A DNA stretch of 64,000 bases from Escherichia coli (lineage in GTDB: Bacteria > Pseudomonadota > Gammaproteobacteria > Enterobacterales > Enterobacteriaceae), in the NCBI RefSeq assembly GCF_041248615.1, contig NZ_CP158426.1; one strand, given 5' to 3'. The notes below the pieces were generated by a model, which saw only the letters and a program-made list of their open reading frames with translations, ran no database searches and was not told the DNA's origin. Positions within the stretch are counted from its first letter, which is position 1. Each line of letters begins with the position of its first letter. This document shows positions 57,261-63,762 of this stretch, piece by piece. The translations under genes and the position numbers were made by a program.

Positions 57261-57300
57261 CCCCTCACCCTAACCCTCTCCCCGGATGGGGCGAGGGGAC
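57261..57300. repeat. GC-rich palindromic repeat unit
   Basis: cccctcaccctaaccctctccccggatggggcgaggggac; inverted copy at 63737-63762. Confidence 0.6.
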
Positions 57301-57478
57301 AGACCGCAGACTGATTGGCGAAAATCACTCCCATTAAGCAATTAATCGATTAATTATTTTTTCATCCTATTAATAATTTGCCCCTTTCACTCCCCCTCTA
57401 TTTAATACCTCACCTTGTGTCACTGCCTGATTTGCGTGCACAAAATCGCCCATACCATTACAGCAGAGAAAGTAAGCC

Positions 57479-58330
57479 ATGCTGAAGTACAGTAAAACGC
57501 CAGGCATCTTTAAATTAGAAGGTAATCGGCTCGGACGCCCCTACCATCGCCTGCCGACCCTGTTCACGGGGAATTTTGACGTGATTGATTCGCATCTTGG
57601 CAGCTACTTTCTCAAAAAGCATCGCAGCAATATCACCTTAAAAAAGATTGGCTGCGAAATGGATATCATTAATAAAAACGCCGAGCTGATGGTTTCCCAG
57701 GTCGGGCATCTGGCGTTTGATATTGATCGCTCCTTGCTGTTAATGCTGCTGGGCAATTTTTATGGTCTGGAGTCGTCTCTTGAAGAGGCGAAAGACCATA
57801 ATGGCCTGCCGACCAAAACCGAAACGCGGTTAAAGAACCGCCTCGCGCTGGATATCTGTACGCTGATTTTTAATCTGCAAACCTCCGGTATTGCGCTGAA
57901 ATTAAAGCTGGATAGCAGCACGGTGATTACCCACTGGGCGTATCAATTAACCTTTACCCTCGCGGGTGATGAAGAGAGCAGTTTTCGTATTTTGCTCGAC
58001 GACGCCCATACCGATTTTATTTTAAATCTGATCCGCCACAGCGAGCACAGTAAACCGCAGCAGGTGGCGAAATCCGTTAATAAACCGGCCCTGATTAAAG
58101 AAATCATCCGCTCCCTGCCGTTGACTCTGAACGTCAAAATCGCCGAGCTGTCGCTGAATGTCGCGGATCTCACGCAGATAAAAGCCGGGGATATTTTACC
58201 CATCTCGCTGGGAGAAACGTTCCCGGTGGCGATTGGGCAATCTGAATTATTTAGCGCCCTGATTGTGGAAGACAAAGACAAACTGTTTTTGTCGGAGCTG
58301 GCGGGCAAAAATGAGAATAGCCATGAGTAA
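57479..58330 (+). CDS. lfiM: Switch protein FliM homologue
   Basis: 283 aa, C-terminal SpoA-like domain. Confidence 0.7.
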   Translation: MLKYSKTPGIFKLEGNRLGRPYHRLPTLFTGNFDVIDSHLGSYFLKKHRSNITLKKIGCEMDIINKNAELMVSQVGHLAFDIDRSLLLMLLGNFYGLESSLEEAKDHNGLPTKTETRLKNRLALDICTLIFNLQTSGIALKLKLDSSTVITHWAYQLTFTLAGDEESSFRILLDDAHTDFILNLIRHSEHSKPQQVAKSVNKPALIKEIIRSLPLTLNVKIAELSLNVADLTQIKAGDILPISLGETFPVAIGQSELFSALIVEDKDKLFLSELAGKNENSHE

Positions 58331-58694
58331 GCAAGAAGATATTTTAGCCGGGGATTTTGGCCTCACCGATGAAGTTGCGCCTGTCGCGAAATCCGCCGAC
58401 GCTGAAACGCTGGTCACCCGCCTGGAAGACCGCTTTTCCGACTCGATGACGCTGCTGAAACGCATTCCGGTGACCTTAACGCTGGAAGTGTCGTCGGTGG
58501 AAATTATGTTAGCCGACCTGCTTAACATCGACGACGACACGGTGATTGAGCTGGATAAGCTCGCCGGGGAGCCGCTGGATATCAAAGTGAACAATATCCT
58601 GCTGGGCAAAGCGGAAGTGGTGGTGGTCAACGAGAAGTACGGCCTGCGCGTGCTGGAGTTTAACACCCGCGATATCAACGACCTGGCACCATGA
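58323..58694 (+). CDS. lfiN: Switch protein FliN homologue
   Basis: Start at MSKQED overlapping fliM homologue stop; SpoA domain. Confidence 0.8.
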   Translation: MSKQEDILAGDFGLTDEVAPVAKSADAETLVTRLEDRFSDSMTLLKRIPVTLTLEVSSVEIMLADLLNIDDDTVIELDKLAGEPLDIKVNNILLGKAEVVVVNEKYGLRVLEFNTRDINDLAP

Positions 58695-61631: not shown

Positions 61632-63708
61632 ATCGTTCCTCGCGCTGCTGCGCGGCGGCAATCTCGGCGTGCCGCTGGTGATCCTGTGTATTCTGGCGAT
61701 GGTTATTCTGCCGCTGCCGCCTGCGTTGCTGGATATTCTGTTCACCTTCAACATTGTGCTGGCGGTGATGGTGCTGCTGGTGGCCGTGTCGGCGAAACGT
61801 CCGCTGGAATTCAGCCTGTTCCCGACCATTTTGCTGATCACCACCTTAATGCGCCTGACGCTCAACGTTGCTTCTACGCGCGTGGTGTTGCTGCACGGGC
61901 ATCTCGGCGCGGGCGCGGCGGGTAAGGTGATTGAGTCATTTGGTCAGGTGGTGATTGGCGGCAACTTTGTCGTCGGCTTCGTGGTGTTTATCATCCTGAT
62001 GATCATCAACTTTATCGTCGTCACCAAAGGGGCCGAGCGTATTTCCGAGGTTTCTGCCCGCTTTACCCTGGACGCGATGCCCGGCAAACAGATGGCGATT
62101 GACGCCGATCTTAACGCCGGGTTGATCAACCAGGCGCAGGCGCAAACCCGGCGTAAAGATGTTGCCAGCGAGGCCGATTTCTACGGCGCAATGGACGGGG
62201 CATCGAAGTTTGTGCGCGGGGATGCCATCGCCGGGATGATGATTCTGGCGATCAACCTGATCGGCGGCGTCTGTATCGGGATCTTCAAATACAACCTGAG
62301 CGCCGATGCCGCCTTCCAGCAATATGTGCTGATGACCATCGGCGACGGCCTGGTGGCGCAGATCCCGTCCCTGCTGCTTTCCACCGCGGCGGCGATTATC
62401 GTCACCCGCGTCAGCGACAACGGCGATATTGCCCATGACGTGCGTAACCAGTTGCTGGCAAGCCCGTCGGTGCTCTACACCGCCACCGGGATCATGTTTG
62501 TGCTGGCGGTTGTGCCGGGGATGCCGCATCTGCCGTTTTTGCTGTTCAGCGCCCTGCTTGGTTTTACCGGCTGGCGGATGAGCAAACGCCCGCAGGCGGC
62601 GGAGGCGGAAGAGAAAAGCCTCGAAACACTGACCCGAACCATCACCGAAACCAGCGAGCAACAGGTCAGTTGGGAAACTATTCCGCTGATCGAGCCCATC
62701 AGCTTAAGCCTCGGCTACAAGCTGGTGGCGCTGGTGGACAAAGCACAGGGTAACCCGCTCACCCAGCGGATTCGCGGCGTGCGGCAGGTGATTTCTGACG
62801 GTAACGGCGTGCTGCTGCCGGAGATCCGCATTCGGGAAAACTTCCGCCTCAAGCCCAGCCAGTACGCCATTTTCATCAATGGCATTAAGGCTGATGAAGC
62901 GGATATTCCGGCGGATAAACTGATGGCCCTGCCCTCCAGCGAAACCTACGGCGAGATTGACGGCGTGCTGGGGAACGACCCGGCGTACGGGATGCCGGTG
63001 ACCTGGATCCAGCCCGCGCAGAAAGCGAAAGCGCTGAATATGGGGTATCAGGTGATCGACAGCGCCAGCGTGATTGCCACCCATGTGAACAAGATTGTCC
63101 GCAGCTATATTCCTGATTTGTTTAACTATGATGACATCACGCAGTTGCATAACCGTTTGTCGTCGATGGCACCGCGCCTGGCGGAAGATTTGAGCGCGGC
63201 GCTCAATTACAGCCAATTGCTGAAAGTGTACCGGGCGCTGCTGACCGAAGGCGTTTCCCTGCGCGATATTGTCACCATCGCCACCGTGCTGGTCGCCAGT
63301 AGCACAGTGACCAAAGATCATATCCTGCTGGCGGCCGATGTGCGCCTGGCATTGCGGCGCAGCATTACCCATCCGTTCGTTCGCAAGCAGGAGCTGACGG
63401 TGTATACGCTGAATAATGAGCTGGAAAATCTGCTCACCAACGTGGTGAATCAGGCGCAACAGGGCGGGAAAGTGATGCTCGACAGCGTGCCGGTCGATCC
63501 GAATATGCTCAACCAGTTCCAGAGTACGATGCCGCAGGTAAAAGAGCAGATGAAAGCGGCGGGGAAAGACCCGGTGCTGCTGGTGCCGCCGCAGTTGCGT
63601 CCTTTGCTGGCGCGTTATGCAAGGTTGTTTGCGCCGGGGCTGCATGTGCTGTCGTATAACGAAGTGCCGGACGAGCTGGAGTTGAAGATTATGGGGGCGT
63701 TGAGTTGA
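61615..63708 (+). CDS. lfhA: Export-gate protein FlhA homologue (intact; K-12 fhiA is the truncated counterpart)
   Basis: 697 aa, N-terminal 8-TM domain plus cytoplasmic domain. Confidence 0.9.
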   Translation: MAKTTKSFLALLRGGNLGVPLVILCILAMVILPLPPALLDILFTFNIVLAVMVLLVAVSAKRPLEFSLFPTILLITTLMRLTLNVASTRVVLLHGHLGAGAAGKVIESFGQVVIGGNFVVGFVVFIILMIINFIVVTKGAERISEVSARFTLDAMPGKQMAIDADLNAGLINQAQAQTRRKDVASEADFYGAMDGASKFVRGDAIAGMMILAINLIGGVCIGIFKYNLSADAAFQQYVLMTIGDGLVAQIPSLLLSTAAAIIVTRVSDNGDIAHDVRNQLLASPSVLYTATGIMFVLAVVPGMPHLPFLLFSALLGFTGWRMSKRPQAAEAEEKSLETLTRTITETSEQQVSWETIPLIEPISLSLGYKLVALVDKAQGNPLTQRIRGVRQVISDGNGVLLPEIRIRENFRLKPSQYAIFINGIKADEADIPADKLMALPSSETYGEIDGVLGNDPAYGMPVTWIQPAQKAKALNMGYQVIDSASVIATHVNKIVRSYIPDLFNYDDITQLHNRLSSMAPRLAEDLSAALNYSQLLKVYRALLTEGVSLRDIVTIATVLVASSTVTKDHILLAADVRLALRRSITHPFVRKQELTVYTLNNELENLLTNVVNQAQQGGKVMLDSVPVDPNMLNQFQSTMPQVKEQMKAAGKDPVLLVPPQLRPLLARYARLFAPGLHVLSYNEVPDELELKIMGALS

Positions 63709-63736
63709 TGGGGGAGACTATATAAGGTCTCGGACT

Positions 63737-63762
63737 GTCCCCTCGCCCCTTTGGGGAGAGGG
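63737..63762. repeat. Inverted copy of the GC-rich palindromic repeat seen at 57261-57300
   Basis: gtcccctcgcccctttggggagaggg versus reverse complement of 57274-57300 gtcccctcgccccatccggggagaggg. Confidence 0.6.

Follow-up and report, generated by a model that had tools for sequence, protein, structure and literature searches.

BoxC elements in the two gaps around the Flag-2 lateral-flagellar export operon of Escherichia coli

The BoxC family, also described as PIT element or TMECO, has been characterized in a number of studies (Bachellier et al., 1999; Hoyne et al., 2000; Hoyne and Maher, 2002; Holder et al., 2015, PMC4666352). BoxC is a GC-rich repeat of roughly 50 bp, and it has been reported in more than 260 genomes (Holder et al., 2015). 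The three-block triplex consensus given for TMECO reads CCCTCNCCC-N3-6-GGGNGAGGG-N3-GGGNGAGGG, and for its G-rich strand there is in vitro evidence of an intrastrand purine-motif triplex (Holder et al., 2015). Type-A and type-B copies recurrently pair head-to-head, BoxC loci are prone to rearrangement, and the collapse of a BoxC pair to a hairpin is referred to as the 'palindrome effect' (Holder et al., 2015).

A comparable system is formed by the REP/BIME repeats and the transposase RayT. Like REP, BoxC is a short, GC-rich intergenic palindrome, but the motifs differ, i.e., GCCGGATG...CATCCGGC in REP versus CCCTC/GAGGG blocks in BoxC. To our knowledge, there is no dedicated transposase for BoxC.

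The window discussed here is a stretch of 64,000 nucleotides (64 kb) of E. coli DNA. On its plus strand it carries the Flag-2 lateral-flagellar export operon lfiM-lfiN-lfiP-lfiQ-lfiR-lfhB-lfhA (57479–63708), as delimited by the list of open reading frames and by the annotation of a 100% identical RefSeq record, NZ_OW967178.1 (isolate 362). The operon is context for the repeat and lies outside it. In this Flag-2 locus, a GC-rich hairpin element at 57261–57306 recurs in inverted orientation at 63730–63762. The left copy is located in the divergent lafK-lfiM gap and the right copy in the convergent lfhA-yafL gap, so the initial annotation correctly placed them in the gaps on either side of the lfiMNPQR-lfhBA block. 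Judged from their sequences, both elements are members of the already known BoxC (PIT/TMECO) family, one complete and one a deletion remnant. They are very likely two independent residents, of which the right one is what a deletion left of a BoxC pair, and they do not form a functional bracket of the operon.

The two copies and their inverted arrangement

A repeat search detected two inverted segments, I2 (57281–57306 and 63731–63756; 26 nt, 85% complementary) and I18 (57274–57290 and 63746–63762; 17 nt, 82% complementary), which merge into a single gapped match of ~33 nt. This inverted match is beyond chance, as patterns of 27 nt and 24 nt found no match in 100 shuffles of the 64-kb window. 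Both copies have the same stem arms and the same GGGGACAG.CCG tail. Their loops are unlike (GGAT versus AAA, the latter one base shorter), which makes the earlier description of the pair as near-exact reverse complements slightly generous, although the inverted pair itself stands. On the BoxC profile, the right copy scores 31.4 bits on the minus strand versus 13.0 bits on the plus strand. Since the asymmetric stem (CTC versus CGA) and the tail favor the minus strand, the inverted orientation is genuine and no artefact of self-complementarity. The copies are not equivalent, as the left one has an extra 5′ block, CCCCTCACCCTAA, that is absent from the right one.

The family profile was built from the 22 published K-12 BoxC copies (Petrillo et al., 2008, supplementary data). 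Searched with nhmmer, it recovers exactly two sites in the 64 kb, the left (E = 3e-13) and the right copy (E = 8.5e-9); the next, unrelated match has E = 10, and no additional or degenerate BoxC copies were found in the window. The left copy (57261–57306, C-rich strand on plus) is a complete, solitary type-A element with a TAA/TTA second loop. It scores 45.6 bits over HMM positions 5–49 and agrees with the consensus of the 22 copies at 43 of 51 columns. Its G-rich strand (57297–57262 on minus) fits the three-block TMECO consensus, as the sole match in the window, and its exact 37-mer is cataloged for the same locus in SMS-3-5 (row 153 of Table S8 in Holder et al., 2015). Profile, consensus and catalog entry together bear out the suspicion that the element belongs to a family of small intergenic repeats that is already known. 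In its fit to profile and consensus, its type-A TTA loop and its intergenic position in a hypervariable locus, the left copy resembles the dispersed copies of BoxC in general.

The right copy (63730–63762, minus strand; nhmmer and pattern match) is a truncated type-A BoxC of which the hairpin and the 3′ tail remain, and its profile match covers HMM positions 18–50 only. It lacks the third block (CCCCTCACCCTAA) and failed the three-block consensus; a two-block hairpin pattern was the only match at this copy (63740–63762). With only two blocks left, the right copy would be unable to adopt the intrastrand triplex structure that has been put forward for BoxC. An Rfam scan of 56900–64000 at a permissive E-value gave no family at threshold and only sub-threshold chance matches. 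One of these, the eukaryotic Antizyme_FSE, was rejected at 25.6 bits versus a gathering score of 40.

Inverted repeats around a DNA segment, here one with flagellar genes, are also a feature of invertible switches such as fimS and hin. The two copies are indeed genuinely inverted and share an interrupted homology of about 33 nt, and BoxC loci are reportedly prone to rearrangement (Holder et al., 2015), so RecA might invert the 6.4-kb export operon and uncouple it from its promoter in a switch-like manner. Such an inversion is exceedingly unlikely. The chimeric junction that it predicts was found in none of 5426 complete E. coli genomes (query coverage of at least 80%), and the gene order lafK-lfiM...lfhA-yafL is the same in all 1289 genomes with the block, so that the proposed comparison of locus orientation across strains yields a single order. 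The longest unbroken identity between the copies is about 13–14 bp, which would be shorter than the minimal processing segments that RecA requires for efficient homologous recombination. Moreover, most strains have one copy or neither. Unlike fimS and hin, the locus has no adjacent recombinase gene, nor is one annotated in the surrounding 64 kb; it shows one orientation in 5426 genomes, and its repeats belong to a genome-wide family. The initial annotation had also considered deletion of the export operon, which falls away because recombination between inverted copies yields inversion instead.

The right copy and its parental BoxC pair

At the right site, PCN033 and AF40 contain a head-to-head pair of full BoxC copies, type A on minus and type B on plus, with E-values of 4.5e-17 together with 7e-11 in PCN033 and 2.1e-11 in AF40. 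The window allele equals this pair minus exactly 64 bp, with no other difference and with a 5-nt overlap at the junction. In comparison with both strains, the deletion junction (63758–63773, plus strand) consists of GAGGG (63758–63762) followed by the AGAAAAACGTG tail of a type-B BoxC. It falls inside near-identical direct 10-mers, GGGGAGAGGG and GGGGCGAGGG (GGGGNGAGGG repeats). SWHEFF_68 has an equal 64-bp loss of which the junction is shifted within the 10-mer; the two junction variants could stem from a single deletion combined with a point mutation. In K-12, the same type-A/type-B composite is additionally present between gcvP and ygfF.

The right copy is accordingly best read as the remnant of a head-to-head type-A/type-B pair after a 64-bp deletion between direct 10-mers. 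This deletion removed both third blocks, leaving a plain hairpin with one tail from each parent. Its end-points suggest slipped mispairing during replication, helped by structure-forming DNA. The fuller allele is thus a typical inverted type-A/type-B pair and its collapse an instance of the 'palindrome effect', while the right copy differs from other BoxC elements in having two blocks and in being a chimera of a type-A hairpin and a type-B tail. With its 64-bp loss, 10-nt direct repeats and two junction variants, the site provides a clean natural example of the collapse of a type-A/type-B BoxC palindrome. That the collapse occurred in a gap which also hosts rayT, hicAB and BIME arrays supports the published view that BoxC marks unstable intergenic DNA. 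Marking local sequence instability, and probably promoting it, is the sole activity of BoxC seen at this locus.

Hairpins and transcription signals

The two copies had been proposed to act as promoter-proximal and terminator structures, the left hairpin regulating from within the promoter region and the right one ending or stabilizing the lfiM-lfhA transcript. REP elements are able to protect mRNA 3′ ends, and as other strains have REP/BIME at both places, a hairpin of whatever kind could be of use there. Folded as RNA, the left copy reaches −24.1 kcal/mol (z about −2.2) and −30.8 kcal/mol (z about −2.4). The right copy also forms a stable hairpin (−19.2 and −18.6 kcal/mol), which begins ~30 nt 3′ of the lfhA stop codon, yet it folds no better than shuffled sequences (z −0.9 and −1.45). 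Structure prediction thus gives stable hairpins for both copies.

The right copy resembles rho-independent terminators in having a GC-rich stem-loop shortly 3′ of a stop codon in a convergent gap. Unlike these terminators, neither copy has a T-run 3′ of its stem on either strand: the right stem is followed by AGAAAAAC on plus and ACAGTCCG on minus, the left stem by ACAGACCG on plus and GGGCATCA on minus. A consensus scan for promoters and terminators found nothing at either element, with total counts equal to those of shuffles. According to the account of Hoyne and Maher (2002) given in Holder et al. (2015), published tests of these elements revealed no promoter or terminator activity. The strain comparison points the same way, as strains with hicAB or hicB have no BoxC or REP directly 3′ of lfhA, and the right element is kept where the operon is deleted (AF40).

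The left copy lies within the 372-bp divergent lafK-lfiM gap, of which an alignment of five strains delimits a replaceable center (57220–57349). These 130 bp, which hold the left BoxC, are dispensable and are the sole non-conserved part of the promoter gap, while 113 bp adjoining lafK and 129 bp adjoining lfiM are kept between alleles. A search for a sigma-54 promoter (TGGCAC-N5-TTGCA, GG/GC required) gave no credible site on the plus strand of the gap and only a weak 7/11 match on the minus strand (57452–57437). Altogether, a role as promoter-proximal structure and transcript end is very improbable, and the missing T-runs, the silent scan and the negative published assays speak against what had been proposed. 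Either hairpin may have a modest effect on mRNA stability or on the geometry of the lafK/lfiM promoters. For flagellar biology the pair matters little, since it is no dedicated device for controlling or rearranging the operon.

Allelic turnover and the bracketing of the operon

A 58-nt BoxC query matches 5425 of 5426 complete E. coli genomes at 85,018 places. The median is 17 places per genome, with a range of about 2–29 across strains; this figure is a population median across genomes and not the count of the window's own genome. The annotated feature under the query matches is 'none', and both window copies are intergenic. The full left BoxC allele with its locus-specific flanks is found in 57 of 1284 genomes, and most other Flag-2 strains have a REP/BIME of similar length at the center of the gap. 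The lfhA-yafL gap (63709–63805; 97 bp), in which the right copy begins 22 nt 3′ of the lfhA stop codon, is a multi-allelic hot spot. In the strains compared, it is occupied by the BoxC pair (22 genomes), the collapsed hairpin (about 105 genomes), rayT plus BIMEs (K-12, SMS-3-5), hicAB, hicB alone or a BIME array.

BoxC occurs in many highly conserved copies, strictly between genes and at 2 to 29 places by strain, and its presence is polymorphic at both sites. It can thus also be seen as a non-autonomous miniature transposon with recent insertions at the two sites, the bracketing then reflecting a target preference for operon boundaries. This is very improbable. When the flanks of the left copy were queried without BoxC, they were found once each in the 57 genomes and always 46 bp apart; they are unique to the lafK-lfiM locus, the repeat unit does not extend into them, and they are never joined without BoxC, so that there is no empty site. 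At the left site, the alternative alleles replace about 130 bp and are not clean insertions. Of the hallmarks of a MITE, neither a target-site duplication nor an empty-site allele was seen, and no terminal inverted repeats are visible beyond the hairpin. Besides, BoxC is not associated with transposons, phages or plasmids (Holder et al., 2015).

Either BoxC or REP/BIME is present in both operon-flanking gaps, and in K-12 and SMS-3-5 rayT itself resides in the lfhA-yafL gap. The REP consensus palindrome is absent from the window copies and present in the alternative alleles of FORC_031, W, K-12 and THO-006, and the REP-bearing alleles contain no matches to the BoxC profile. It is conceivable, if highly unlikely, that BoxC and the RayT/REP system compete for, or displace each other at, structure-prone intergenic sites; BoxC pairs could then be preferred landing or replacement sites for RayT-mobilized REP arrays, or the reverse. 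If true, this would connect the two repeat families mechanistically, in a way that has not been described so far.

The reading of the two copies as independent residents rests on their combinations among strains. The left BoxC occurs with the collapsed hairpin (about 9 genomes), the BoxC pair (about 9 genomes), rayT (25 genomes) and hicAB or hicB (12 genomes), and a left REP occurs with the collapsed hairpin in at least 5 genomes; one representative locus was read for each of these classes, except for left BoxC with collapsed hairpin, which is the window strain's own record. All four combinations of left and right alleles occur, and AF40 has lost Flag-2 and retained the right BoxC pair. The left and right sites vary independently among strains. 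The initial annotation had taken the bracketing to be coincidental if the element proved ubiquitous in intergenic regions without positional bias, and BoxC is dispersed across them, with a median of 17 places in each genome. BoxC is confined to intergenic DNA, and only two gaps adjoin this block of overlapping or nearly abutting genes, which would explain the bracketing. Both gaps are hypervariable, permissive and subject to fast turnover; other strains have REP/BIME, rayT or a toxin-antitoxin cassette in them. The pairing looks coincidental, and it calls for caution in general, as genome-wide intergenic repeats inevitably seem to bracket tightly packed operons.

Two figures weigh against coincidence. 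Two BoxC sites 6.4 kb apart exceed the average density. By our own arithmetic, ~0.22 BoxC sites are expected per 64 kb, which gives a probability of ~0.02 for two or more. As there are ~78 such windows per genome, one to two such cases are still expected. By our count, the window has 31 gaps of at least 50 bp; if two of these are occupied, they will be neighbors with a probability of ~6.5%.

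BoxC copies on either side of the export operon

The window is the Flag-2 (lateral flagella) region of an E. coli chromosome; where it was compared with NZ_OW967178.1, across the lafK-lfiM gap and the 6.9-kb block in its entirety, the identity is 100%. The left copy (57261-57306, plus-strand sequence CCCCTCACCCTAACCCTCTCCCCGGATGGGGCGAGGGGACAGACCG) lies in a 372-bp gap between the divergent genes lafK, encoding a sigma-54 activator, and lfiM. The right copy (63730-63762, plus-strand sequence TCGGACTGTCCCCTCGCCCCTTTGGGGAGAGGG) lies in a 97-bp gap between the convergent genes lfhA and yafL. 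In a repeat search, the inverted pair appears as a 26-nt segment (85% complementary) and a 17-nt segment (82%); the two combine into a single gapped match of approximately 33 nt. Shuffled sequence gives zero matches to the left and right repeat patterns. The inverted recurrence around the operon (lfiMNPQR-lfhBA, 57479-63708, plus strand) described in the initial annotation is confirmed, with the qualification that the loops are unlike and the right copy is the shorter one.

Both elements are known copies of BoxC (Bachellier et al.), a family identical with TMECO and with Hoyne and Maher's PIT elements (Holder et al., 2015, PMC4666352); profile, consensus and catalog entry all bear out the earlier suggestion of a known small intergenic repeat family. 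Petrillo et al. (2008, PMC2267715) provide 22 BoxC sequences from E. coli K-12 in their supplement, for example TGTTCCCCTCACCCTAACCCTCTCCCCGAGGGGGCGAGGGGACTGTCCGTG; in the consensus of these sequences, 43 of 51 columns are matched by the left copy. When a profile made solely from these 22 copies was run over the 64-kb window, it recovered the left copy (E=3e-13, profile positions 5-49) and, on the minus strand, the right copy (E=8.5e-9, positions 18-50 only), which lacks the 5′ block CCCCTCACCCTAA. No further site scored in the 64 kb, the next, unrelated match having E=10. The TMECO consensus is CCCTCNCCC-N3-6-GGGNGAGGG-N3-GGGNGAGGG, with TTA in the second loop defining type A and CCG type B (Holder et al., 2015, PMC4666352). 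It is matched by the left copy only (minus strand, 57262-57297, type A); the right copy fits just a two-block hairpin pattern. Row 153 of Table S8 in Holder et al. (2015, PMC4666352) lists a 37-mer, CCCTCGCCCCATCCGGGGAGAGGGTTAGGGTGAGGGG, at NC_010498 261597-261633 that is identical to that of the left copy. We mapped this position to the lafK-lfiM gap of strain SMS-3-5, so the left element is already in the literature at its very locus.

A collapsed BoxC pair in the lfhA-yafL gap

An lfhA-yafL gap resembling that of the window occurs in 127 genomes only, 22 of which have a longer version. In PCN033 and AF40, this longer version consists of two full BoxC elements placed head to head: a minus-strand type-A element (GTCCCCTCGCCCCTTTGGGGAGAGGGTTAGGGTGAGGGG) and a plus-strand type-B element (CCCTCACCCCGGCCCTCTCCCCAAAGGGGCGAGGGAGAAAAAC), separated by a 16-nt spacer. 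The window allele equals this pair allele apart from a single 64-bp gap, the ends of which fall within the direct near-repeats GGGGAGAGGG and GGGGCGAGGG, with five junction bases (GAGGG) common to both. The same type-A/type-B composite is found in K-12 between gcvP and ygfF. K-12 has five BoxC pairs, without exception composed of type A and type B, and a 'palindrome effect' has been described in which both copies lose a portion of their sequence and what remains is a simple hairpin (Holder et al., 2015, PMC4666352). Therefore, the BoxC pair is the older state at the lfhA-yafL gap. The right 'copy' is a collapsed chimera: its hairpin and the tail on one side are those of type A, and the opposite tail (AGAAAAACGTG) is of type B. 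We infer from the end-points that the 64 bp may have been lost by slipped mispairing between the 10-mers.

A second collapsed-hairpin variant is present in SWHEFF_68 (locus L011, 6746-6778, against 63730-63762 in the window), in which GGGGCGAGGG replaces GGGGAGAGGG. Here the loss is equally 64 bp and the junction lies four bases leftward, giving GGGGCGAGGG and a perfect stem. This variant arose either through a separate 64-bp deletion whose junction was shifted or through a point change at a later time. The one slightly instructive detail is that the 64-bp collapse of a type-A/type-B pair could be reconstructed, in two junction variants, within a gap that is also home to rayT.

Gap alleles and independent inheritance

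Both gaps are hot spots. Among 1284 genomes matching the lafK-lfiM gap, 57 carry the BoxC allele; the others have REP/BIME sequences of comparable length at this position, which is the central region of approximately 130 bp (57220-57349), with 113 bp adjoining lafK and 129 bp adjoining lfiM conserved. The immediate flanks of the left BoxC occur once each in precisely those 57 genomes and are always split by the 46-bp element, so none of the genomes with these flanks has an empty site (57/57 occupied). The lfhA-yafL gap (63709-63805) is a multi-allelic cargo site, as seen by comparison with loci of other strains (L006, L007, L008, L010, L013 and L016). It can hold rayT plus BIMEs (K-12, L008; SMS-3-5, L010), a hicAB toxin-antitoxin pair (strain 1190, L016), hicB alone (XJ6.1 and YDC107), a BIME array (THO-006), or the BoxC pair or its remnant. 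The REP-associated tyrosine transposase rayT is absent from this locus in the window strain.

Allele combinations were obtained by sorting a whole-block search by span and reading one representative locus for every class but the first. The left BoxC occurs with the right collapsed hairpin in about 9 genomes (the first class, represented by the window strain's own record), with the full pair in about 9, with rayT in 25 and with hicAB or hicB in 12, while a left REP accompanies the collapsed hairpin in at least 5. In the majority of strains, neither gap carries BoxC. In AF40, Flag-2 is reduced to an lfhA'-lafU scar and the right-hand BoxC pair is still present. The left and right copies are thus inherited independently and have produced no detectable inversion: a chimeric query for the inversion junction was covered for at least 80% in 0 of 5426 genomes, which leaves the proposed role as a rearrangement substrate unsupported.

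The wide intergenic spread of the element is what the initial annotation itself named as grounds for regarding the bracketing as coincidental. Searching complete E. coli genomes with a 58-nt query that spans the left copy gave matches in 5425 of 5426, at 85,018 places (median 17 per genome, range 2-29), and among the matches listed there was no annotated gene beneath. BoxC is always intergenic, shows neither strand bias nor any association with the function of genes or the arrangement of operons, and is strongly strain-dependent in copy number (Holder et al., 2015, PMC4666352). By our own arithmetic, 17 places in approximately 5 Mb correspond to about 0.22 per 64 kb and a chance of about 0.02 of at least two in one such window; since a genome comprises about 78 windows of this size, any strain is expected to have one or two with at least two BoxC places. 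By our count from the annotation, 31 gaps in the window measure 50 bp or more, so two occupied gaps would be neighbors about 6.5% of the time. As there is overlap or almost no space between the seven genes, any two BoxC copies nearby must flank them exactly. The bracketing is a mild coincidence and needs no functional explanation.

Folding, signals and neighboring features

The left copy folds as RNA at -24.1 kcal/mol (plus strand) and -30.8 kcal/mol (minus strand), with z of about -2.2 and -2.4; for the right copy, the values (-19.2 and -18.6 kcal/mol; z -0.9 and -1.45) are no better than those of shuffles. Neither copy has a T-run after the stem on either strand, a terminator call in the scan or an Rfam family, and the left copy is not overlapped by any credible promoter consensus, whether sigma-54 or sigma-70. 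Hoyne and Maher (2002), as reported in Holder et al. (2015, PMC4666352), found that DNA polymerase is blocked by the elements in vitro and saw neither promoter or terminator activity nor an in vivo effect. The idea that they act as promoter or terminator structures therefore finds no support. In the data of Holder et al. (2015, PMC4666352) themselves, BoxC loci are associated with increased sequence variability in their vicinity.

At 57452-57437 on the minus strand, near the lfiM start and facing lafK, there is a weak sigma-54-like motif, TGGGCGATTTTGTGCA, which agrees with the consensus at 7 of 11 positions; the plus-strand search for lfiM gave nothing comparable. Elsewhere within Flag-2, two genes, one for a DNA cytosine methyltransferase (plus strand) and one for a type II restriction endonuclease (minus strand), are inserted at 42915-45632 between lfgA (flgA) and lfgM (flgM). 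This insert occurs in 28 of 1278 genomes matching the region; in the others, flgA adjoins flgM directly. Outside Flag-2, the matching RefSeq record has gene remnants annotated at 11444-12023 and 20119-20673: a partial ykgR, a partial LysR-type gene, prfH with a frameshift and a truncated gene of the rtcB family.
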